Assembly (NCBI GenBank): GCA_963730265.1 | Contig: CAVSRG010000002.1 | Location: 377,884 to 441,883, forward strand | Reading direction: 5' to 3' | Length of the DNA stretch: 64,000 bases | Source of the DNA: an uncultured Actinomycetota bacterium | Lineage (GTDB): Bacteria > Actinomycetota > Actinomycetes > Streptosporangiales > Streptosporangiaceae | Part shown: piece after piece, positions 5,367-61,857 of the stretch | Layout of the letters: every line of letters starts with the position of its first letter | Numbering within the stretch: position 1 is the stretch's first letter | Notes under the pieces: model-generated | Database searches by the model: none | What the model was told of the DNA's origin: nothing | The model's input: the letters and a program-made list of their open reading frames with translations, nothing else | Program-made: the position numbers and the translations under genes

Positions 5367-7019
5367 CTACGGGCGGATCCGGGCCAGGACCAGGGTGATG
5401 TCGTCCTCGCCGTGCTGGCCCATGGCCCTGGTGACCGCCTCGCAGGCGTCGTCCAGCGGCACCGCCGGGTCGGCCAGAGCGGTGCGCAGCGCCTTCTGCA
5501 GCGCCTCCAGCCCGTCGTCCAGCGGCTGGGCCCGGCTCTCCACCAGCCCGTCGGTGTACAGGGCCAGGGTGGCCCCCGGCGGCAGACTAACGAGGGTGGA
5601 CTCGAAGGTCTCGGCACCCAGGCCGAGCGGGAGGCCCGGCGGCAGCTCCAGCACCTGGGTCTCGCCGCTGGCCAGCACCAGTACCGGGGGCAGGTGCCCG
5701 GCCTGCGCGGTCACGCACGAGCTGGTGGCGGGGTCGATGACGGTATAGATGCAGGTCGCGAACGGCGAGATTAGCCCGGCCGCCATCCGGTCCAGCCGGG
5801 CCAGCACCCGCTCCGGGGCCAGCTCCAAGTCGGCCAGCGTGTGCGCGGCGGTGCGCAGCTGGACCATGACCGCCGCAGCCTCCGGGCCATGGCCCATGGC
5901 GTCGCCGACCACCAGCGCGGCCTTGCCGCTGGGCAGCGTCACGATGTCGTGCCAGTCGCCGCCGACCACGCTGCCGCCCACGCCCACGTAGCAGCGGGCG
6001 ACCTCCATGCCCGCCGGCACGTCGGGCTGGCCGGGCAGCATGCCCCGCTGGAGCGCCTGCGCGGTCCGGCGCTCCCGGTCATACAGCCGGGCGTTGTCGA
6101 TGCAGACCGCGGCTCGCGAGGCCAGCTCGCCGGCGGCGGCGATATCGGCCGGGCCGAACGGCGAGCTGCTGGAGGCCCGCCCGAACGTGGCACAGCCCAG
6201 CACCGCCCCGCGGGCGATCAGCGGCACGGCCAGCCATGAGGTAAAGCTGCCCACCAGGTCCTCGCCGCCGGGATGGCGGGCGATCCGCTCGGCGGTCTCG
6301 TCGTCCAGCTGGTCGAACAGCATCGGGGTGCTGGTCGTCATGGCCCGGTAGGACGGCGAGCCCTCGGCGAAGACCACGACCTCGCCCGGCCGCAGCAGGC
6401 CCTCGGTGACCGCCGCCGGATGCCCGGACAGGCGCGCTGCCAGCCGCCGGAGCACCGCCCCGTGCCCGGCCCGCGGCGAGGCGAACTCGTCGGCCACCAG
6501 CAGCCGCTCGGCCACGAAGATGGCGGACGCGTCGGCGAAGCCCGGCACGGCCACGTCCACCGCCTCATTGGCCGTGGTGCTGAGGTCCAGCGTCGTGCCG
6601 ATCCGGGCCGCCGCCTCGCTGAGCCAGCCGGGGTCGGGCTGCTGCGCCGCGACCTGCGCGATGACCAGCGCGCCGGGGCCGGCGCCGACCAGCGGCTCGC
6701 AGCGCAGCGCGATGGGGCCACTCTCTAATGGCAGCGTCGCGGTCCACACCCGGCCCGCCGCGACCTCGGCCAGAGCCTGGTCGGCGAGCTGGCGCTGGCC
6801 GGGACTGGTCAGCAGGACGTCGCACACGTGCCGCCCGGCCACCGCGCCCACCGGGTGCCCGAACACTCGGGTGGCGGTCAGCGACCAGGTAGCCACCCGG
6901 CCCGCTGAGTCCAGGGTGAACGTGGCGAGGCCAGCCAGGTTAGGCTCGCGCCGGCGCGGCAGCCTGGGCCTGCCGTCCCCGGAAACCTGTGACTCCGACT
7001 CCACCGGTGCCTGCACCAA
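5367..7019 (-). CDS. PAS-GAF-PP2C (SpoIIE family) protein serine/threonine phosphatase
   Basis: 550-aa ORF. The C-terminal half carries PP2C/SpoIIE motifs (GGDWHDIV, LVVGDAMGHGPEAA, LALYTDGLVE, EDDITLVLARI). A GAF-like middle domain and a PAS-like N-terminus precede it. Confidence 0.85.
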   Translation of the reverse strand: MVQAPVESESQVSGDGRPRLPRRREPNLAGLATFTLDSAGRVATWSLTATRVFGHPVGAVAGRHVCDVLLTSPGQRQLADQALAEVAAGRVWTATLPLESGPIALRCEPLVGAGPGALVIAQVAAQQPDPGWLSEAAARIGTTLDLSTTANEAVDVAVPGFADASAIFVAERLLVADEFASPRAGHGAVLRRLAARLSGHPAAVTEGLLRPGEVVVFAEGSPSYRAMTTSTPMLFDQLDDETAERIARHPGGEDLVGSFTSWLAVPLIARGAVLGCATFGRASSSSPFGPADIAAAGELASRAAVCIDNARLYDRERRTAQALQRGMLPGQPDVPAGMEVARCYVGVGGSVVGGDWHDIVTLPSGKAALVVGDAMGHGPEAAAVMVQLRTAAHTLADLELAPERVLARLDRMAAGLISPFATCIYTVIDPATSSCVTAQAGHLPPVLVLASGETQVLELPPGLPLGLGAETFESTLVSLPPGATLALYTDGLVESRAQPLDDGLEALQKALRTALADPAVPLDDACEAVTRAMGQHGEDDITLVLARIRP

Positions 7020-7123
7020 CCTCGACGACGCGGCTACGCGGGTATATCGCGCAAAAAAGAAACGTATCGCATCATGGGTGCCGAATTAAGCACTACGCCA
7101 TCCAGGTTGCTCGGAAAAGTCGG

Positions 7124-7933
7124 TTACCGGACGCCGCCCAGGCGGAACCACTGCAGCTTCATGCCCTTGCCGCCGGCCCAGATCTCGAACCCGGCGTGCA
7201 GCGAGTCGAGCCAGTAGCCCTGGTGGATGAGGTGCAGTCGCTTGAGCACCCGGAAGAACGGCAGCAGCGGCAGGTGACGGAGGTCGCCCCGGCCGGGCAC
7301 GGCCCGGAAGATGATCAGTGGCCAGGTGATCTTCGGGTCGGTCAGCGACCGGGTCCTCCAGTAGACCAGGTGCCAGCGGCGGCCATCCACCCGGATGTTG
7401 CCCGCCGGCTTACCGAACCCGTGGGCGTTCGGCCAGATCATGACCTCGGCGCCGGTGACGATGCCGGTCTTCTGCTCGCGGCGGCTCAGCCACATGTCGA
7501 TGTTGGCGTCCCACTTGCCCCTGGACGGGAGCTTGGCGAAGTAGGACACCCACGGGTGCTTCATGCGGAACACCCGGGCCGGCAGGGTGGTGCCGTGGTC
7601 GCAGGTGTTGTAGGAGCACCCGGCGAACAGGTTCGGGTAGGCGTCGGACTCGCTGCCGTAGGTGCGGGCGCGCGAGGCAGTCACCGCGAAGTCGGGGCCG
7701 GTGCGGTAGTGGGTGATGCAGATCGGCGCGGCACCCGGGTAGAAGTCGTTGTTCTTGAGTACGTACTGACCCCACGGGCCGTCCACGTGGATGTGCTGGC
7801 CGGCCTGGCACATCTTCATCTGGCCCCCGCCGCCGGGGACGATGGAGCCCACCGCCTGGGTGGCCGCCAGCGCAGGCAGCAGGCCGGCCAGCAGGCCCGC
7901 CGCCAAGATGCCCCCGAGAATCTTGCGCTTCAT
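7124..7933 (-). CDS. Secreted GH12-like endoglucanase
   Basis: Lies in ORF 7124..8026, with the ATG at 7933 preceded by GAGGAG. Signal peptide: MKRKILGGILAAGLLAGLLPALA. GH12-type motifs: DANIDMWL, AEVMIWPN (nucleophile Glu) and HAGFEIW (acid/base Glu). Confidence 0.65.
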   Translation of the reverse strand: MKRKILGGILAAGLLAGLLPALAATQAVGSIVPGGGGQMKMCQAGQHIHVDGPWGQYVLKNNDFYPGAAPICITHYRTGPDFAVTASRARTYGSESDAYPNLFAGCSYNTCDHGTTLPARVFRMKHPWVSYFAKLPSRGKWDANIDMWLSRREQKTGIVTGAEVMIWPNAHGFGKPAGNIRVDGRRWHLVYWRTRSLTDPKITWPLIIFRAVPGRGDLRHLPLLPFFRVLKRLHLIHQGYWLDSLHAGFEIWAGGKGMKLQWFRLGGVR

Positions 7934-8225
7934 TGCCCGGAATCTCCTCGTACCAGTCGCAGTGAGTGGCCCCAATACGAAACCCCGAGCCGGAGCCGCC
8001 TGCCCTGGCCGCCCCCGCTCGTCCATGTTCGGCCCGGTCGCGTAGCAACCGTCACCAGCGCCTCACATTAGTTCTGTTCCCGCCATTTCGCCCGGCGAAT
8101 ACATGGCCTAATCGTGAACTTTCGCGCGGGCAGGCAACAAGGGCGTACGAGACCCGGAATTGACCTGGGCTGATGACTCACAGTCGATCTTCCGGCATCC
8201 CGATTACCTGACTAGAGTCAGAGGT

Positions 8226-9143
8226 ATGCACGGGATGGACGCGGACATGATCACTCAGGTCAGGCGGTTCAACCGGACGGTCACGCAGCGGGCCGGCGCG
8301 CTGAGCGATGAGTTCCTGGCCCGCGAGCGCCCGCTCGGGCAGGCCCGGGTGCTGTGGGAGATCGGCCCGGACGGCTGCGACGTCCGGCGCCTGCGGGCCC
8401 GGCTGGACCTGGACTCGGGGTACCTAAGCCGGCTGCTGCGGGCCCTGGAGGGCGACGGGCTGGTCGCGGTCGAGGCGAGCCCGGCCGACCGGCGAGTGCG
8501 CACGGCCCGGCTGACCCGCGCCGGGCGGGCCGAGCGGGCGGAGCTTGACCGGCGCTCCGACGAGGTCGCCGCCGCGCTGCTCGCGCCGCTCAGCGCGGGC
8601 CAGCGCGGCAGGCTCGTCGCCGCGATGGCCGACGTGGAGCGGCTGCTGCTGGCCTCGGCCGTCCAGGTCGCGCCCTGCGACCCGCGCCACCCCGACGCCC
8701 GGTTCTGCGTGCGGGCCTATTTCAGTGAGCTAGCCCAGCGGTTCGAGAGCGGCTTCGACCCCGCGCAGAGCCTCCCGGCGGACGACGACGAGCTGACTCC
8801 GCCCGCCGGCGTGCTGCTGGTCGCCCGCCTGCACGATCAGCCCGTGGGCTGTGCCGCGCTCAAGTTCCACGACGGCCAGCCGGCCGAGATCAAGCGGATG
8901 TGGGTGGCGCCCCAGGCCCGCGGCCTCGGCCTGGGCCGGCGGCTGCTGGACGAGGTCGAGGCCGCGGCCGCCGCCCGGCGGGTGACCACCCTGCGGCTGG
9001 AGACCAACCGGGCGCTGACCGAGGCCATCGGCCTGTACCGGGCGGCCGGGTACCGCGAGGTGGCCGCGTTCAACCGCGAGCCCTACGCCCACCACTGGTT
9101 CGAGAAGAAACTCAGTCCAGCGGGCTCAGGCCCGCCGCGGTGA
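8226..9143 (+). CDS. MarR-type HTH / GNAT N-acetyltransferase fusion protein
   Basis: ORF 8160..9143, with a likely ATG at 8226. The N-terminal MarR-like winged helix reads RRFNRTVTQRAGAL...LSRLLRALEGDGLV. The C-terminal GNAT acetyl-CoA motif reads RMWVAPQARGLGLGRRLL...YRAAGY. Confidence 0.85.
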   Translation: MHGMDADMITQVRRFNRTVTQRAGALSDEFLARERPLGQARVLWEIGPDGCDVRRLRARLDLDSGYLSRLLRALEGDGLVAVEASPADRRVRTARLTRAGRAERAELDRRSDEVAAALLAPLSAGQRGRLVAAMADVERLLLASAVQVAPCDPRHPDARFCVRAYFSELAQRFESGFDPAQSLPADDDELTPPAGVLLVARLHDQPVGCAALKFHDGQPAEIKRMWVAPQARGLGLGRRLLDEVEAAAAARRVTTLRLETNRALTEAIGLYRAAGYREVAAFNREPYAHHWFEKKLSPAGSGPPR

Positions 9144-11144: not shown

Positions 11145-11966
11145 GTGGCCGAATCTGACACCGTTCCATCAGGCATTGACGTGTCGGTGCCGAACGTGGC
11201 GCGAATCTATGACTACCTGCTGGGCGGCAAGGACAACTTCGCGGCCGACCGGGAGTCCGCCGCTCTGGCGCTGCGCGCCGTTCCGCAGATGCGCTCGCTG
11301 GCGCTGGAGAACCGGCGGTTCCTGAGCCGGGCCGTGCGGTTCTGCGCCGAGGCGGGCGTGCGGCAGTTCATCGACGTCGGCGCGGGGCTGCCGACTCAGG
11401 ACAACGTGCACCAGGTGGCGCAGCGGGCCGACCCCGACGCGCGCGTGGTGTACGCGGACAACGACGCCGTGGTGGTGAGCCACGGCCGGGCGCTGCTGAC
11501 CGAGGACCGGCAGACGGCCGTGATCCGCGGCGACCTGCTGGCGCCCGAGGAGATGCTGGACAACCCGGAGCTGCGGGCGCTCATCGACCTCGACCAGCCC
11601 GTCGTGCTGCTGCTGGTGGCGTTGCTGCACTTCATTCCCGTCGAGTTCGGGCCCGAGGCCTGCGTGGCCCGGCTGCGCGATGCGGTGGCGCCGGGCAGCT
11701 ACCTGGTCGTCTCGCACTCGGAGGTGGCGCCCGAGCACGCGGTCGGAACCACGCCGCTGTCCGAGGAGACGCGCCTGCTCGGGCAGGCCTACAACCGGCC
11801 GATGGGCCCGGTGCGGAGCCGGGCGGAGATCGCCGAGTTCTTCGGTGACTGGGAAGTGCTCGAGCCCGGCGTGACGGAGGTGTGGAACTGGCGGCCCGAG
11901 GGGGAGTCGTTCGTCAGTCCCAGTTCCATCGTGTCTATGGTCGGCGCGGTCGGCCGCAAGCGCTGA
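11145..11966 (+). CDS. SAM-dependent methyltransferase, DUF574 family
   Basis: 273-aa ORF with NVARIYDYLLGGKDNF, FIDVGAGLPT, VVYADND, LLLVALLHF and C-terminal VGAVGRKR. Confidence 0.9.
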   Translation: MAESDTVPSGIDVSVPNVARIYDYLLGGKDNFAADRESAALALRAVPQMRSLALENRRFLSRAVRFCAEAGVRQFIDVGAGLPTQDNVHQVAQRADPDARVVYADNDAVVVSHGRALLTEDRQTAVIRGDLLAPEEMLDNPELRALIDLDQPVVLLLVALLHFIPVEFGPEACVARLRDAVAPGSYLVVSHSEVAPEHAVGTTPLSEETRLLGQAYNRPMGPVRSRAEIAEFFGDWEVLEPGVTEVWNWRPEGESFVSPSSIVSMVGAVGRKR

Positions 11967-30349: not shown

Positions 30350-31171
30350 ATGTCGGGAGACCTGGGCTTAGCAGACGCGGGAAATGGCGGGCCGCCGGCC
30401 ATCGATACGAGCGTGGCCCACATCGCGCGGGTCTACAACTACTGGCTGGGCGGTACGACGAACTACCCCGCCGACCGCGAGGCGGCCCAGCAGGCCATGG
30501 CCGCCTACCCGGACCTGGCCCTGTCGGCCCGGGCCAACCGGGCCTTCCTGGCCCGGACGGTGCGCTGGCTGGCCGGCCAGGGCATCCGGCAGTTCCTCGA
30601 CATCGGCACCGGCATCCCGGTCAAGAACAACACCCACGAGGTCGCTCAGGCCATCGCGCCGGACAGCCGGGTGGTCTACGCCGACCACGACCCGATCGTG
30701 CTGGCCCACGCCCGGTCCCTGCTCACCAGCAGCGCGGCGGGCGCCACCGACTACCTGGACGCGGACCTGCGCGAGCCCGGCAAGATCCTCACCGCGGCGG
30801 CCCGGACCCTGGACCTCAGCCAGCCGGTGGCGATCGTGCTGATGGCGGTGCTGCAGTTCATCGTCGACGAGGAGCAGCCGGTTGACATCGTGGCCGAGCT
30901 GCTGGACGCCGTGCCGAGCGGTAGCTACCTGGTGGTGTCGCACCCGGCCAGCGACATCGACGCCGCCGCCATGCGCGAGCTGGCCAAGCGGCTCAACCGG
31001 CTGATGGTCCAGCGGGTCGCGCTGCGCAGCCGGGCCGAGGTGACGCGGTTCTTTGACGGCCAGTCCCTGATAGAGCCGGGCGTGGTCCGGATCCCCGAGT
31101 GGCGGCCCGACGCTCCGGCCGACCGGGGCATTCCGTCCACGATGTGGGGTGGCGTGGGACGCAAGCCCTGA
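30350..31171 (+). CDS. SAM-dependent methyltransferase, DUF574 family
   Basis: 273-aa ORF with IARVYNYWLGGTTNY, FLDIGTGIP, VVYADHDP, VLMAVLQF and C-terminal WGGVGRKP. Confidence 0.9.
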   Translation: MSGDLGLADAGNGGPPAIDTSVAHIARVYNYWLGGTTNYPADREAAQQAMAAYPDLALSARANRAFLARTVRWLAGQGIRQFLDIGTGIPVKNNTHEVAQAIAPDSRVVYADHDPIVLAHARSLLTSSAAGATDYLDADLREPGKILTAAARTLDLSQPVAIVLMAVLQFIVDEEQPVDIVAELLDAVPSGSYLVVSHPASDIDAAAMRELAKRLNRLMVQRVALRSRAEVTRFFDGQSLIEPGVVRIPEWRPDAPADRGIPSTMWGGVGRKP

Positions 31172-55865: not shown

Positions 55866-58800
55866 ATGGAATTCCGGACGCTCGGACCGATTGAGCTGTG
55901 GTCGGCTGGTCAGCCCCATGACCTCGGCTCGGCCCGGCTGCGCTGCGCGCTGGCCGTACTCCTGCTGGCGCCGGGCACGATCGTGTCGGCCGATACGTTG
56001 ATCGACCGCCTCTGGGACACCCATCCGCCGCCGAAGGCCAGGGAAAGCCTGTCGGTCTACATGGCCCGGCTCCGGGTGTCGCTGCGCCAGGCGGTCGGCG
56101 ACCACGTGCAGCTGATCGGCCGCACCAGGGGCTACGTGCTCCAGGTCGATCCCGACGCCATCGACGTGCATCAGTTCCGCCGGCTGCGCCGGCAGGCGGA
56201 CTCGCTGGCGGCCAGCGGCGACCACGCCCGCGCGGCCGAATTGCTGCACGAGGCGGACGGGCTGTGGCACGGCCAGGCGCTGACCGGGATCCGGGGCGAC
56301 TGGGTCGAGCGGATGCGCGACAGCCTGGAGGAAGAGCGCCGGGCGGCGCTCCTGGAGCGGGTGGAGTGCGAGCTGGCGCTGGGCCTGGCACGCCGACCTG
56401 GTCGGCGAGCTGCACCACCTGCTGGCCCAGTACCCGCTGGACGAGACGTTCATCGGCCAGCAGATGACCGCCCTGTACCGCAGCGGCCGCCCGGGTGATG
56501 CCCTGAGCCTGTACCGGGACACCCGGCACCGGCTCGTCGAGGAGCAGGGCACCGAGCCCGGATCGGCGCTGGCCGAGCTGCACCAGCGCATCCTGGGCCG
56601 GGATCCGGCGCTGGCCGTGCACGGGGCCGTCCAGCGCCCGGTCCGGGCGGCGCCGACCGACACGCTGCCGCCCGAGACGGCGCCGTTCGTGGGCCGGGGC
56701 GAGGAACTGGCTCAGCTCCTGGGACCGCCCGGCCCGGGCCCCCGGGTCGTCGTCATCGAGGGCATGCCGGGCGTCGGCAAGACCGCGCTGGCCGTGCACG
56801 CCGCCCGTCAGCTCGGCGACGAGTACCCGGACGGGCGGCTCTACCTCAATCTGCGGGCCCAGGAAACCGGCCGCCCCTCGCTCGACGCGGCCGAGGCGCT
56901 GCACCGCCTGCTGCGCATGCTGGCGGTGCCGGCCGAGCAGATACCGGACCTGCTCAGCGACCGGGTCGCGCTGTGGCGGGCTCAGCTCAGCCGCCGCCAG
57001 GCCGTGGTGATCCTCGACGACGTGACCCAGCATGACCAGATCCGCCCGCTGCTGCCGGCGACCGGCCAGAGCCTGATCCTGGTCACCACCCGGCGGCTGC
57101 TCGGCCTGGGCGAGGCCCGCACGCTGACCCTGGACGTGCTATCCCGCGACGACGCCGTGGCGCTGTTCCGGCGGGACGCGGGCGGCGAGCGCGCCGGGGA
57201 CTCTGACCAGGTCGCCGAGGTGGTGAACCTGTGCGGGCGGCTGCCGCTGGCCATCCAGCTCGCGGCCGGGCGGGCCGCGCACGACCAGGCGCTGCGGCTG
57301 GGCGACCTGATCGCGGAATTGTCGCAGTCCCCGACCCGGCTGGGCGGAACGGGCGCCGCCAGCCCGGAGGTCATCTCGGCCTTTGACCTGTCCTACGGCG
57401 CGCTGGAGCCGGATCACCAGCGGTTCTTCCGGCGGCTGGGGGTCAGCCCGTGCACGAGCTTCGGCCTGCCGGCCGCGGCCGCGCTGAGCGGTGCCACCCC
57501 GGCCGAGGCGGAGAAGGCCCTGACCACCCTGCTCGATCATCACCTGCTGGCCAGGGCCGCGGACGACCAGTACCGCTTCCACGACCTCATCCGCGGCTAC
57601 GCGGCCGTGCGGGCGGCCCGCGACGATCCCGAGGCCGAGCAGCGTCAGGCCGTCGGCCGGCTGCTCGGCTACTACCTGGACGCGACCGCACGCGCGCAGG
57701 AGGGCCTGGGGCACCGGGAGGACGCGACCGCCTGGCTGGAGGCGGAGTGGCGGAACATCCTGCAGGCCGCCCGGCACGCGGGGCAGTTCGACTGGAAGCG
57801 CAACTGCGCCGACCTGACCCACCTGCTGGCCGAGTTCCTGGAGATCAAGGCGTGCTGGGACGAGGCCATGTCGGCCCATTCCCTGGCCCTCAAGGCCGCC
57901 CGCGACCTGGCCGACCCGGGCCGGATCGCGCTGGCGTCCCTGGACCTCAGCGCGGTGTACCAGCAGCTCGGACGGCACGATGCTTCCCGGCCGCCAGCCG
58001 AGGAGGCGGCGGGAATCTACCGCTCGCTGGCCGACCGGGGCGGAGAGGCCAAGGCCGTCGACCGGATTGGCATGGCCCACCAGCGCGTGGCCCGCTCCCG
58101 CGAGGCCCTGGCCTATTTCCATGAGGCCCAGAATCTCTACGAGGAGGCCGACGACCAGCTCGGCGTGGCGGGCGCACTTGGTCACGCCGGAATCGCCTGC
58201 TGGCATCTGGGCCGCGGTTCCGAGGCCCAGGAACACCTGAAAGAAGCGGTGCGGCTGTACCGCGAGGAGGGCGACCAGCGCGGTGAGGCCAAGGCGCTGA
58301 ACAACCTCGGGCGGATTTACCTGTATTGCGGATATCACCGGGACGCGCTCGAGTCCTACGAGCGGTCGCTGCAGATATTCAAGGAGATAGGCGGAAAGCA
58401 GAACCAGGCGATCCTGCATCACAATATCGGCAGCGTCTACCACTACAAGGGCAGCTACGAGGAAGGTCTCGCGCACTGCCGCCAGGCGCTGGCGATATAC
58501 CGCGAGATCGGCGATCTGCCCGACGAGGCCGACGTGCTCAATGACATCGGCGCCATCTACCAGAGCGCGGCCTGCTACGAAGAGGCGCTTGTTCATCACG
58601 AGAACGCGCAGCGGATCGCCGAGCAGACCGGAAACCTGGCCCAGCGGCTGGTCGCGCTGCGCCGCATCGCCGACATCCATCGCGGGTCCGGCCGGTACGA
58701 GCAGGCGGTCGAGCACTACCGGACCGCGCTCACGCTGGTCCGGGAGCTCGGGGACGCCTACGAGGAAGGCAAGATCCTCGAGGGCATCGCCGAGTGCACC

Positions 58801-58947
58801 CTCAGCACCCAGCGCCCCGACGCGGCGCGAATCGTCTTCCGCCAGGCGCTCGACATCTTCGACCGGCTCGGCGTGCCCGAGGCGGAGTCGGCGCGGATCC
58901 GCATCGACACCCTGGATCCGTCGTACGGACTGCGCATCTCCTCCTGA
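55866..58947 (+). pseudogene. AfsR-like SARP regulator (OmpR-type wHTH + BTAD + NB-ARC ATPase + TPR), frameshifted in the BTAD domain
   Basis: ORF 55866..56498 reads MEFRTLGPIELW...RGYVLQVDPDAIDVHQFRRL...ECELALG and then junk. The frame of ORF 56464..58947 read upstream gives HADLVGELHHLLAQYPLDETFIGQQMTALYRSGRPGDAL. P-loop GMPGVGKTALA and about 8 TPRs follow. The break is at about 56384-56388. Confidence 0.85.
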
Positions 58948-59080
58948 GATCCCCCGGCGGTCTCCCGGAGCCCCCGGCCGTGTGAGCTGGACGGCAAGGC
59001 AGGCGTCAAGGCGAGTGCAACCCGGCGCGACCAGGCTGTTAGTCGAGCCGCCCAGCCCGTCCTGACCCCAGGGAGTCGCC

Positions 59081-60346
59081 ATGGGCCTGAACCAAGGCCG
59101 GTCCGCATCGGATTTCCGCCGCTGGATCCCTGGCCGGGTCCGGCCGCGCGGCCGGGCCCGCGAGCAGGCGCCGGATGCGGAGGCGGCGCCCCGCCCGGCC
59201 TTCCTGGCCTGCCCGGTGGACGACGATGGGGACGACTTCACGGCCAGCTTCGCCGCGGACCTGCGGCTGCTGTGCGCCGGGCGGTCGCTGGGGGTGGACG
59301 ACCGCTTCGCCCTGGACAGCCTGCTGGTGAGCGCCGAGCGGTTCATCACCCTGTTCCACAGCGAGACGCGCGCCGGGGCGCCCGACCGGCGGCTGTGGCA
59401 GGTGCGGCGGGAGGTGGAGCGCACGGGGACCTACCGTCACACGGCCGCCGAGCTGGCCTTCGGGGCCCGGGTGGCCTGGCGCAACAGCTCCCGCTGCGGC
59501 GGGCGGCCGATCTGGCGGAGCCTGCGGGTGCGGGACCGCCGCGAGGTGACGGCGGCGCCGGACATCGCGGCCGAGTCCGTCGCGCACCTGCGCGAGGCGA
59601 CCAACGGCGGCCGGATCCGGCCGGTGATCACCATCTTCGCGCCCGACGCGCCGGGCCTGCCGGGCCCGCGGATCGTCAGCCCCCAGCTCGTCCGCTACGC
59701 CTGCCACCAGGCCGCCGGCGGACCGGTCACCGGGGATCCGGTGAACGCCGACCTCACCCGGCTGGCCCGCGAGGTCGGCTGGCCGGGCGGCCGTACGGGC
59801 GGCCCGTTCGACATCCTGCCGCTGCTGGTGGCCGAGCCCGGCGGCCAGATCACGTGGCATGAGCTGCCCCGCGACGCGGTGCTGGAGGTGGGCATCCGGC
59901 ACCCGGACTTCGGCTGGTTCGCCGATCTGGGCCTGCGCTGGTACGCGGTTCCGGTGACCAGCGACATGTACCTGGACATCGGCGGCGTCTGCTATCCGGC
60001 GGTGCCGTTCAACGGCTGGTACGTGTGCACCGAGATCGGCTCGCAGGACCTGGGCGGCACCGCGCGCTACGACCAGCTGCCGGTGATCGCCGAGCGCATG
60101 GGCCTGTCCACCGGCAGCGACCAGACGCTGTGGAAGGACAAGGCCATGACCGAGCTCAACCTGGCCGTGCTGCACTCGTTCAACGCCGACGGAGTCACGA
60201 TCACCGATCACCATGCCGAGTCGGTCCGCTCCTGGTCGGCGACGCCGGTCTTCCCCCGTTACTACGAGGACTTCAGCCAGACGCCGAACTTCTACCAGCA
60301 CCCGGTGTCGCTGCGGCTGAAGTCGGCGGGCCTGCCGCTGGAGTAG
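59081..60346 (+). CDS. Nitric oxide synthase oxygenase-domain homologue (divergent)
   Basis: 421-aa ORF with GGGAG upstream of the ATG. It is collinear with bacterial NOS: TGTYRHTAAELAFGARVAWRNSSRCGGRPIW (heme Cys at 59495-59497), RIRPVITIF, FDILPLLV, WYAVPVTSDM, PFNGWYVCTEIG, LWKDKA, ITDHH, TPVF...PNFYQ. Confidence 0.85.
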   Translation: MGLNQGRSASDFRRWIPGRVRPRGRAREQAPDAEAAPRPAFLACPVDDDGDDFTASFAADLRLLCAGRSLGVDDRFALDSLLVSAERFITLFHSETRAGAPDRRLWQVRREVERTGTYRHTAAELAFGARVAWRNSSRCGGRPIWRSLRVRDRREVTAAPDIAAESVAHLREATNGGRIRPVITIFAPDAPGLPGPRIVSPQLVRYACHQAAGGPVTGDPVNADLTRLAREVGWPGGRTGGPFDILPLLVAEPGGQITWHELPRDAVLEVGIRHPDFGWFADLGLRWYAVPVTSDMYLDIGGVCYPAVPFNGWYVCTEIGSQDLGGTARYDQLPVIAERMGLSTGSDQTLWKDKAMTELNLAVLHSFNADGVTITDHHAESVRSWSATPVFPRYYEDFSQTPNFYQHPVSLRLKSAGLPLE

Positions 60347-60391: not shown

Positions 60392-60925
60392 CTAGGCGGG
60401 CGGCGGGTCCGGCCAGGGCCGGGCCAGCGGGAGGGGCTCGTCGGAGCGCCAGGTCCGGATCCAGGCCTCCTCGTCCCTGGTGACGGTCGCGCCGCAGGCG
60501 GCGCAGGTCCGGCCCGTGCGGATCTCGCCGCCACAGCCGGCGTGCACGCTGACCAGCGGCGAGTTGGGGGCGGCACCCTGGGTGTACTGGTGCCCCCAGT
60601 CCGCCAGCGCGCGCAGCATCGGGGCCAGGTCGGCGCCCGCCTGGGTCAGCCGGTACTCCTGCCGCTGCCGCCGCCCGTCGTGGTAGGGCACCTTGACCAG
60701 GACGCCGTGCTCGGTCAGCCGCCGCAGGCGGTCGGCCAGGATGTTGTCCGCGATCCCCAGGCGGTCGCGGAACTCATCGAACCGTCGCACCCCCACGGTG
60801 GCCTCGCGCAGGATCAGCAGAACCCAGCGATCGCCGAGCAGCCAGCCCGCCCGGCCGATGGGGCATCCCCGGCTCTCGTGTCCCCCCGGCGCCGGCCGGG
60901 CCGGGGCGTCATTTTCGGCTTTCAT
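60392..60925 (-). CDS. HxlR family winged-helix transcriptional regulator
   Basis: 177-aa ORF reading CPIGRAGWLLGDRWVLLILREATVGVRRFDEFRDRLGIADNILADRLRRLTEHGVL. It has a C-terminal Cys-rich extension (HAGCGG...CAACG). Confidence 0.85.
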   Translation of the reverse strand: MKAENDAPARPAPGGHESRGCPIGRAGWLLGDRWVLLILREATVGVRRFDEFRDRLGIADNILADRLRRLTEHGVLVKVPYHDGRRQRQEYRLTQAGADLAPMLRALADWGHQYTQGAAPNSPLVSVHAGCGGEIRTGRTCAACGATVTRDEEAWIRTWRSDEPLPLARPWPDPPPA

Positions 60926-60990
60926 ATTGCAAGTCTAGCTCGATCTGCGCTAGCTTGTCATCTGAAAGTCAGCAGCCTCTGGAGGTTCAG

Positions 60991-61857
60991 GTGACCACCA
61001 CCGTCATAGGCGCCACCGGCCGCACCGGCAGCGCCGTCGTCCATCGCCTGCTCGACGCCGACCAGGCCGTGCGCGTCCTGGTGCGCGACCCCGGTAAGGC
61101 CCGCCAGCTGTTCGGCGAGGCCCCCCGGCTGGAGGTCGTCGCGGCCCGGCTCGACGACCCCGCGGCGGTCGCCGCCGGGCTCAAGGGCGCCGACACGACA
61201 TTCATCGCGATGGGCTCCGTCGGGCTCGAGGCCAACTTGCAGCGGGTCGCGATCCAGGCCGCCGCGACCGTCCCGGACCTGCGCCAGCTTGTCCGGCTGT
61301 CCGTGCTGAACGCCGGGCCCGACTCGCTCGGCATCAACCAGCGCGGCCACTGGAGCATCGACTTCGCGGCCCAGGTGGCCGGCGTCCCCTACACCACCAT
61401 CCGGCCCGCCATCTACTCGGCGTCGCTGCTGGTGGCCGCCCCCGAGATCAAGGCCAGCCGGACCTGGACCGGGCTGGCCGACGCCGGCCGCGTCGCCCTC
61501 AGCGACTACCGCGACGTGGCCGACGTCGCCGTCCGCGTCCTGGCTGACCCGGCCACCTGGGGACGGCACCACGACCTCACCGGACCGCGGCTGGTGAGCT
61601 GGCCCGAGGCCCTGGAGGTGCTGTCCGCCGAGCTCGGCGAGACAGTGACGTTCCGCACCACGGACGCCTTCGGGCTGGTCCGCGGGCTGACCCGGGCCGG
61701 CGTGCCCGCCGGGCAGGCGGAGCTGCTCGTCACCCGGGAGTGGGCGATCCTGGCCGGCGAGAACGAGCGCATCACGACCGCGGTGCGCGACCTGGCCGGC
61801 CATGAGCCGCGGACCCTCGAGGCCTTCCTGCACGAGAACCATGACCTGTTCCGCTGA
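60991..61857 (+). CDS. NmrA-like / atypical SDR NAD(P)H-binding protein
   Basis: Lies in ORF 60955..61857, with GTG 60991 five nt after GGAGG. N-terminal Rossmann motif: VIGATGRTGSAVVHRLL. It is divergent from the HxlR gene. Confidence 0.8.
   Translation: MTTTVIGATGRTGSAVVHRLLDADQAVRVLVRDPGKARQLFGEAPRLEVVAARLDDPAAVAAGLKGADTTFIAMGSVGLEANLQRVAIQAAATVPDLRQLVRLSVLNAGPDSLGINQRGHWSIDFAAQVAGVPYTTIRPAIYSASLLVAAPEIKASRTWTGLADAGRVALSDYRDVADVAVRVLADPATWGRHHDLTGPRLVSWPEALEVLSAELGETVTFRTTDAFGLVRGLTRAGVPAGQAELLVTREWAILAGENERITTAVRDLAGHEPRTLEAFLHENHDLFR

Follow-up and report, generated by a model that had tools for sequence, protein, structure and literature searches.

We analyzed a stretch of 64,000 nucleotides (nt) from an uncultured bacterium of the Streptosporangiaceae (contig CAVSRG010000002.1), which we refer to as the window. 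On the + strand at 59081..60346, the window contains an open reading frame (ORF) predicted to encode a protein 421 amino acids (aa) long that is, by homology, a member of the nitric-oxide synthase (NOS) oxygenase family. The gene is the syntenic orthologue of intact NOS genes at a conserved locus where a NOS gene follows a gene for an AfsR-type SARP regulator. We consider it rather likely that this orthologue is no longer a nitric oxide (NO) synthase and has been kept as a protein, that is, that it is a NOS-derived pseudoenzyme; it is probably at least a NOS-fold protein that does not make NO. NOS enzymes are among the most intensively studied heme enzymes, in which the Cys loop, the pterin site, and the dimer are regarded as fixed features. 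In the window protein, parts essential for catalysis have been lost, with the pterin segment and an Arg of the pterin site gone and the heme-thiolate loop altered. The clade of sequences that share these losses has nonetheless stayed under purifying selection, with a ratio of nonsynonymous to synonymous rates (ω) of 0.099 and with ω = 1 rejected.

NOS fold and altered catalytic sites

The window protein is 100% the same as database protein P0133. An earlier note on this DNA had called the ORF a NOS oxygenase homologue and proposed comparing it with the Pfam NO_synthase model. In that comparison NOS homology was clear, with a match to PF02898 at an E value of 1.5e-113 (379.9 bits versus a cutoff of 22.7). 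The match pairs residues 80-381 with positions 4-305 of the 362 positions of the hidden Markov model and therefore leaves the C-terminal part of the model unmatched. A scan of the protein against NCBIfam gave no family match. The nearest solved structures are the NOS of Geobacillus and Bacillus and the oxygenase domains of mammalian NOS (E about 1e-89 to 1e-76). Alignment with the NOS chains in the Protein Data Bank (PDB) is collinear over residues 79-380, halts there, and resumes weakly over residues 386-406 against chain positions 342-362. Relative to the NOS chain, about 26 residues are therefore missing between residues 380 and 386. The G+C content of the window is about 72% and that of third codon positions (GC3) in the NOS-like frame is 0.96. 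An antisense ORF of 420 aa (59039-60301, - strand) that spans the whole NOS gene was rejected as a gene and is taken to be an artefact of GC bias because of the GC3 of the sense frame.

An AlphaFold2 model of the window protein, made as a monomer from an alignment of 90 sequences, matched NOS structures in Foldseek with a target-normalised TM-score of about 0.73. The mean predicted confidence (pLDDT) was 60.8, with poor values for the Cys and substrate loops as well as for the C-terminus. The intact orthologue P0003, modelled from the same alignment as a control, had a pLDDT of 58.4 with the same weak regions. Since this control was modelled equally poorly, the models are silent on the effect of the changes described below and were used for the fold only.

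A search of a homologue database returned 2500 matches (E <= 1e-20), and a scan in which each species was represented by a single genome yielded 56 NOS loci. As an intact reference set we used 49 full-length relatives extracted from loci in genomes and metagenomes. All 49 have the loop RC[I/V]GRLYW, a spacing of 35 residues from DHH to PVF, and an Arg following TEIG[S/A]. The sites that the earlier note had described as near-invariant in NOS are thus without variation among intact relatives, and the clade of the window protein alone deviates. Only two groups of sequences do so: the window protein with P0001 (96% identical) and P0002 (89%), and the set P0008-P0011 (about 80%). In a leave-one-out count over columns at least 98% conserved, each deviant sequence had 4-8 substitutions and 10-15 deleted columns, versus 0-2 substitutions and no gaps in close intact relatives. 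The intact SARP-linked NOS proteins of uncultured Streptosporangiaceae, such as P0003-P0006, are 78-80% identical to the window protein. A sequencing artefact was rejected as the source of the deviations; the same deletion and substitutions are present in independent short-read and long-read assemblies.

Translation and codon comparison showed that the heme-thiolate loop (R138-W145, 59492..59515, + strand) reads RCGGRPIW, as previously noted. Cys139 is retained, and I140G, L143P, and Y144I are changed with respect to the RCIGRLYW of intact relatives. The resulting C-G-G-R-P-I-W departs from the context C-[I/V]-G-R-[L/I]-x-W; the aligned solved NOS proteins have RC[I/V]GR. The proximal Trp133 and Cys139 are both present in the arrangement W-R-N-x-x-R-C. 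In the substrate/pterin loop (TEIGSQD, 60029..60049, + strand; translation and codon comparison), the position of R247 in Bacillus subtilis NOS (bsNOS) and R375 in iNOS is occupied by Gln322, where intact relatives have Arg (codons CGC to CAG). The substrate Glu, Glu318, maps to Glu243 of bsNOS and is retained, and D326G lies shortly downstream of TEIGSQD. The PFNGWY and WYAVP blocks are kept along with Trp313 and Asn311. The earlier note was therefore right about both the Gln that follows TEIG and the retained blocks.

The same note had reported that the GDW-x-W-L-x-PP block was missing, with a junction at about 60227. DNA and protein alignments place this junction, HAESVR-SW-SATPV, at R383-S384-W385 (about 60227..60235, + strand). 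The alignment of DNA with intact orthologues reveals one contiguous in-frame deletion of 78 nt that takes out FLQH...CPADWxWIVPP, comprising the pair of pterin-stacking Trp residues (W455 and W457 in iNOS; W447 in eNOS) and the dimer-interface segment. The intact orthologue P0003 has FLQHLDKEERQGRACPADWSWIVPP at this place, a stretch that is absent from the window and that aligns residue for residue with eNOS and with the ...GDWTWLIPP of Geobacillus. The Trp of the SW at the junction comes from a junction codon and is probably homologous to neither pterin Trp. The endpoints of the deletion (window 60215-60245, and the homologous DNA of loci L002, L003, and L065) lie at GTCGG direct repeats.

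Five of the deviations, L143P, Y144I, D326G, T379A, and I293T, had not been noted before. Thr293 (59957..59959, + strand), read from the translation VPVTSD and counted along the PDB alignment, lies at the position of Ile218 in B. subtilis NOS. This residue is Ile in the bacterial enzyme (bsNOS) and Val in eukaryotic NOS (PMC7658456). The I293T change is specific to the window strain; the other members of its sublineage, A1 (described below), have Ile. The loss of the canonical pterin site that the earlier note had proposed holds at the level of sequence, with the W-x-W segment deleted as a whole and Gln in place of the Arg. Because the protein is without two defining features of a competent NOS, the pterin or tetrahydrofolate (THF) site and the canonical context of the thiolate loop, it should not be annotated as an NO synthase.

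Sublineages and selection in the degenerate clade

The deviant sequences form one clade in a neighbor-joining (NJ) tree (bootstrap 95, 367 codon columns), nested among the intact orthologues P0003, P0005, and P0006. This degenerate clade contains at least 26 distinct full-length sequences from soil Streptosporangiaceae, recovered from many samples and by many assemblers. It comprises three sublineages. Sublineage A1 (the window protein, the identical P0133, and the P0001 cluster; 14 distinct sequences) has RCGGRP[I/S]W, TEIGSQD, DLGGT, and the 78-nt deletion. Sublineage A2 (the P0002 cluster; 3 sequences) has the 78-nt deletion, NGWH, and the loop ARIGRPCW, in which the Cys has been lost by a change of RC to AR. 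Sublineage B (P0008-P0011; about 10 sequences) has NGWH and GSIGR[L/S/R]YW, in which the Cys has been lost by a change of RC to GS, together with a 93-nt deletion and a 31-aa deletion in the N-terminal region. One subgroup of B has PYNGWY instead of the NGWH change, AEVG, and an extra 8-aa deletion. When A1 is compared with its sisters, the Cys has thus been lost in two of the three sublineages through different mutations. The thiolate loop is hypervariable across the clade, with positions 138, 139, 140, 143, and 144 all varying.

The 93-nt deletion of sublineage B is at the same place as the 78-nt deletion, and both are flanked by GTCGG direct repeats. The larger deletion could have arisen from the intact sequence or from the 78-nt form by slippage that removed a further 15 nt between GTCGG repeats. 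The common ancestor of the clade must still have had RCIGRLYW. Since the deletion region and T379A are common to the sublineages, the simplest history is one in which the pterin segment was lost first and the thiolate loop then decayed three times independently. We also observed three mosaic sequences. P0007 and P0147 consist of an A1-type N-terminal half (RCGGRPSW) joined at WRSLRVRDRR to an intact C-terminal half of the P0144 type, and P0140 has an A1-type N-terminus on a B-type body. These are either chimeras of metagenome assembly or real recombinants.

Selection was examined with a GY94/F3x4 branch model implemented in our own code (11 taxa, five of the DNA sequences being from the degenerate clade; 320 codons; fixed NJ-derived topology) and with pairwise NG86 estimates. 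The test of neutrality rests on the fit to the whole core. In the branch model ω was 0.099 in the clade versus 0.067 in the background, a marginal difference (2ΔlnL 4.3, p 0.04), and fixing ω of the clade at 1 was rejected (2ΔlnL = 185). For the NOS core, pairwise NG86 values of ω were 0.19-0.44 when both sequences belonged to the degenerate clade and 0.15-0.34 for intact pairs. The window sequence and that of locus L062 diverged entirely after all of the changes had occurred; of the differences between them, 13 are nonsynonymous and 23 are synonymous, and ω was 0.19 (p 2e-6 versus neutrality).

The core was then divided into a catalytic partition of 45 codons (the thiolate loop, the P306-Y330 loop, and the flanks of the deletion) and a remainder of 275 codons. 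In the catalytic partition ω rose 16-fold, from 0.012 in intact lineages to 0.199 in the clade (p 1.6e-7). By contrast, ω of the remainder was unchanged at 0.079 in intact lineages and 0.082 in the clade (p 0.83). The NG86 estimates gave the same split. Among 26 degenerate sequences, 25 of 62 positions in catalytic segments varied versus 59 of 271 elsewhere (odds ratio 2.4, p 0.0035). Within each sublineage, A1 included, the catalytic segments were at least as variable as the remainder, whereas they were less variable in intact lineages. We saw no sign of renewed conservation in the catalytic segments of A1. The frame itself has stayed open: stop codons make up 2.5% of the outcomes of random substitution in this ORF, so that 6-13 stops would be expected clade-wide and none was seen, and the 4-5 insertions or deletions in the clade are all in frame, with no frameshift in at least 26 sequences.

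Interpretation and alternative explanations

In the lineage that gave rise to this small clade of soil Streptosporangiaceae, an ancestor lost the pterin/dimer segment by in-frame deletion. The thiolate loop and the substrate/pterin loop then lost most of their constraint, with the three sublineages diverging in different ways. The rest of the fold, the SARP gene, and the conserved 26-nt element that precedes the NOS gene (described below) remained under unchanged purifying selection. The resulting protein would be unable to bind tetrahydrobiopterin (H4B) or THF canonically and would probably not form a tight canonical dimer, and for these reasons would not carry out coupled Arg-to-NO chemistry. 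Its expression would still be under control of the SARP regulator. The retained role would come from the conserved NOS fold or its surface, for example through binding of a ligand or a partner protein in the regulatory module, and not from catalysis. Sublineages A2 and B share the deletion and have an equally constrained remainder, yet are without the Cys; the selected function common to the clade would therefore need no thiolate. More tentatively, the NOS-fold pseudoenzyme could be a non-catalytic part of an AfsR-type SARP circuit, such as a ligand sensor, adaptor, or decoy subunit, an idea that we regard as plausible but short of probable. Synthesis of NO may fall to a second NOS that is intact; the genome of the sister degenerate sublineage has such a paralogue, with a flavohaemoglobin gene beside it.

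Several points weigh against the view that the window protein is a pseudoenzyme. Loss of activity is read from sequence alone, and the window protein retains Cys139, Trp133, Glu318, Trp313, and Asn311, so some function of the pocket, such as binding of heme or Arg, may persist. The clade also retains an ω of less than 1 (0.20, p 1.7e-5) in its catalytic segments. The codon models rest on 11 taxa, a topology fixed in advance from the NJ tree, and home-written code. Within A1, the two DNA sequences available differ in the catalytic segments by only 2 nonsynonymous and 4 synonymous changes, which are too few to speak against a new, stable active site there. Finally, the adjacent regulator gene is frameshifted in the window, and if this is real the module may be inactive in this strain.

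Four explanations can be ranked in the order pseudoenzyme, remodelled heme enzyme (in A1 only), young pseudogene, and still-active NOS. A repurposed heme-thiolate enzyme, in which A1 kept the Cys but remodelled the loop and pterin site for a pterin-independent heme reaction (for example of the peroxygenase type, or the binding or sensing of NO or O2), seems unlikely to us, although the five retained residues listed above, the ω below 1 in catalytic segments, and the fixation of RCGGRP in 14 of 14 distinct A1 sequences analyzed would fit it. So would several two-nucleotide codon changes in the loop, which may reflect fast or directional change. Under this explanation the Cys-less sisters would have to do something else, even though they have the same deletion and an equally constrained remainder. 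Moreover, A1 still varies at positions 144 (I/S), 293 (I/T), 315, 384, and 386, and its catalytic segments evolve at the rate of the remainder, whereas in intact NOS they are about 6-fold more constrained. The drift of the loop and the repeated loss of the Cys fit a loss of catalysis better than they would fit re-optimised heme chemistry. They also bear on the term heme protein used in the earlier note, which is made doubtful by the two sister sublineages that have the deletion and lost the Cys and by loops that drift within A1 too.

That the gene is instead a young pseudogene, an inactivated NOS drifting to loss with its frame open by chance, appears quite improbable. The repeated and different losses of catalytic motifs, the slight overall rise in ω, the frameshift in the neighboring regulator, and an intact paralogue in a related genome that could make this copy redundant would all be expected of such a gene. 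However, neutrality is strongly rejected, constraint outside the catalytic segments is the same as in intact lineages, and the lack of stops and frameshifts, with every insertion or deletion a multiple of three, is not what drift would produce. Other degenerate loci have an intact, constrained regulator gene together with a conserved upstream element, and the frameshift in the window may be an assembly error. Of the two possibilities raised in the earlier note, a degenerate NOS or a repurposed NOS-fold enzyme, the former thus does not stand in the sense of a decaying pseudogene, and the unchanged constraint supports a retained protein. The least probable explanation, and in our view a very improbable one, is an enzyme that still makes NO and copes without the pterin segment, for example by means of another electron donor or a partner in trans. 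The window protein does have the substrate Glu, most Arg-contacting residues, and the heme Cys, and the gene, regulator, and upstream element are conserved. Set against this are the absence of both pterin-stacking Trp residues, the dimer-interface segment, and the Arg that contacts pterin and propionate, features that are invariant in about 50 relatives and in aligned NOS structures. The Cys ligand is gone from close relatives that carry the same deletion, catalytic segments show the 16-fold rise in ω, and in human eNOS a single substitution, W447A, is enough to abolish NO synthesis and to weaken the dimer (PMC3795282).

Comparison with characterized proteins places the pseudoenzyme reading in context. 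The window protein resembles bsNOS and Geobacillus NOS (gsNOS; PDB 1M7V and 2FLQ) in fold and is collinear with them for about 300 residues, at 41-46% identity in Foldseek structural alignments. It also has their WYAVP and PFNGWY blocks, their substrate Glu, and their Cys with the proximal Trp. It differs from bsNOS in being without the pterin/THF and dimer segment (...GDWTWLIPP...) and in having Gln at R247 and Thr at I218, and from both enzymes in having CGGRPI instead of CIGRLF/Y, a disordered N-terminal extension of 75 aa, and sisters without the Cys. With the intact SARP-linked NOS it shares the locus, the AfsR-type regulator, the 26-nt element, and the N-terminal extension; those proteins differ in having RCIGRLYW, TEIGSRD, a 35-residue segment between DHH and PVF, and an ω of about 0.012 in catalytic segments versus 0.20. 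Loss of a pterin-stacking Trp has a parallel in the W447A/F mutants of eNOS and the W457A/F mutants of mouse iNOS (PDB 1JWJ and 1JWK); in the eNOS mutants NO synthesis was abolished or reduced, the enzyme was uncoupled, and the dimer was weakened (PMC3795282). Those laboratory mutants have single residues changed, whereas the window has a natural deletion of 26 residues that includes both Trp residues and their scaffold and that has been fixed under purifying selection. Among actinobacterial proteins, TxtD (thaxtomin) and RufN (rufomycin/ilamycin) are catalytically intact NOS encoded beside P450 and nonribosomal peptide synthetase (NRPS) genes. The window gene is likewise an actinobacterial stand-alone NOS oxygenase gene outside core metabolism, but the catalytic apparatus it encodes is degenerate, and scanning 40 ORFs of the window revealed no P450 or NRPS gene.

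Our literature searches found no description of a NOS pseudoenzyme, of a Cys-less or pterin-less bacterial NOS, or of a link between SARP regulators and NOS. If the interpretation is correct, this would be, as far as those searches show, the first described NOS-derived pseudoenzyme and the first SARP-NOS regulatory module, in a circuit that originally controlled NO production in soil Streptosporangiaceae. A wild lineage that keeps the NOS fold minus the pterin/dimer segment would mean that this fold can be selected for a role besides NO synthesis, and such natural minimal variants would be useful for asking what the NOS fold does without pterin or without a thiolate. The automatic label nitric-oxide synthase is probably wrong for the degenerate clade.

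The SARP-NOS locus and its surroundings

Directly upstream of the NOS gene at 55866..58947 (+ strand) is the gene for the AfsR-type SARP regulator, recognized by Pfam matches to winged-helix DNA-binding, BTAD, NB-ARC, and TPR domains. The regulator is about 1029 aa long in relatives, and in nearly every locus of the subfamily its gene immediately precedes the NOS gene. Searches with tblastn found it there down to 59% identity, and found no such regulator next to a second type of NOS that is without the N-terminal extension. Synonymous divergence of the NOS gene was about equal to that of the regulator gene for the same pairs of loci, which supports orthology, and ω of the regulator gene was 0.24-0.30 inside and outside the degenerate clade alike. 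In the window itself, two-frame tblastn and alignment of DNA with L062 indicated a 1-nt insertion near 56389, inside the BTAD domain (GGGCC-T-GGCACG in the window versus GGGCCGGCACG in L062). This splits the gene into ORFs at 55866-56498 and 56464-58947, encoding 210 aa and 827 aa. The regulator is intact at 1026-1032 aa in L001, L002, L003, L062, and L063. The frameshift in the window may be a real inactivation in this strain or may be an assembly error, the latter because several loci in long-read metagenome-assembled genomes (MAGs) in our set show frameshifts in the NOS or regulator gene. More generally, many long-read contigs of the MFD series had one of these genes in two or three frames (NOS in L047, L049, L055, L056, L057, L059, and L061; the regulator in L004, L020, L026, L047, and L061), which suggests a high rate of assembly indel errors or else frequent real pseudogenisation.

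Between the two genes is a conserved 26-nt element, CAAGGCAGGCGTCAAGGCGAGTGCAA (58995..59020, + strand), that is unique in the window and was found by alignment across orthologous intergenic regions. It contains CAAGGC twice, 12 nt apart, and then CAACCC 11 nt further on. Upstream of nearly all SARP-linked NOS genes the element has 0-8 mismatches (0-1 in the degenerate clade), whereas other NOS loci are at a background of 10-13. The repeats suggest that the element is a candidate operator of the adjacent SARP regulator. The afsR-afsS system of Streptomyces, in which an AfsR-type SARP activates the gene immediately downstream, is similar in having a large SARP gene directly upstream of its putative target and conserved direct repeats about one helical turn apart. 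The target here is a NOS-fold protein and not a small AfsS-like peptide, and both the CAAGGC repeat and its spacing to a -10 box are unlike published SARP boxes. The conserved pairing of an AfsR-type regulator with NOS and this candidate operator suggest regulated NO production as a signaling output in soil actinobacteria. An Rfam scan of the upstream region gave no family match, and a scan for promoters and terminators gave the NOS gene no usable -35/-10 pair and detected no terminator separating it from the regulator gene.

The N-terminal extension of about 75 aa that the earlier note had described is real and is common to all SARP-linked NOS relatives. It comprises residues 1-75 (59081..59305, + strand), is Arg-rich and predicted to be disordered (pLDDT <40 in the AlphaFold2 model), and contains the conserved motifs MGLNQGR at its start, RIPGRxRPRGR, and FxACPV (F-L-A-C-P-V in the window). 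A Shine-Dalgarno sequence, GGGAG (59071..59075, + strand), lies 5 nt ahead of the conserved ATG at 59081 and is itself conserved in orthologues, which supports translation of the extension. Estimates of ω for the extension were noisy (0.3-1.3). Sublineage B has an in-frame deletion that takes 31 aa from it, and in sublineage A2 ACPV has become ASPV.

Beyond the SARP-NOS pair, the genes at these loci are lineage-specific; in the window the NOS gene is flanked by genes for the SARP regulator, an HxlR-family regulator, an NmrA-like protein, and an acyl-CoA dehydrogenase. The HxlR gene (60392-60925, - strand) and the gene for the NmrA-like NAD(P)-binding protein (60955-61857, + strand) form a divergent pair immediately downstream of the NOS gene. 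Among the fetched loci HxlR occurred only beside degenerate NOS copies and was not in the nearest intact loci. We rejected it as a clade-specific partner because its pairing is with the NmrA-like gene and because, in these loci, it is not distributed like the SARP-NOS pair; it is probably lineage-specific gene content outside the NOS module. The earlier statement that no P450 or NRPS partner of the thaxtomin or rufomycin type is nearby agrees with our Pfam scans. The window has 49 ORFs that are likely to be coding, and the 40 of them that were scanned (including nearly all of those of at least 250 aa) gave no P450 or NRPS domains.

Searching the window with tblastn revealed no second NOS gene. 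In a MAG from a sister degenerate sublineage, MFD02671.bin.1.57, we found both a degenerate copy (L007) and an intact one (L045; RCVGRLYW, TEIGSRN, and the full segment). The intact NOS at L045 has no SARP neighbor and is convergent with a flavohaemoglobin gene encoding globin, FAD, and NAD domains (5686-7071 and 7174-8313), in a housekeeping region with ffh, rpsP, trmD, and ftsY. Redundancy with an intact NOS may have permitted the loss of catalysis, the paralogue being known from this sister-sublineage genome. Three more MAGs have two NOS genes each (L028 and L046, L041 and L056, L049 and L057). Elsewhere in the window, and unrelated to the NOS locus, are two paralogous genes for S-adenosyl methyltransferases of the Methyltransf_19 family (PF04672), at 11145-11966 and 30350-31171, 19 kb apart.

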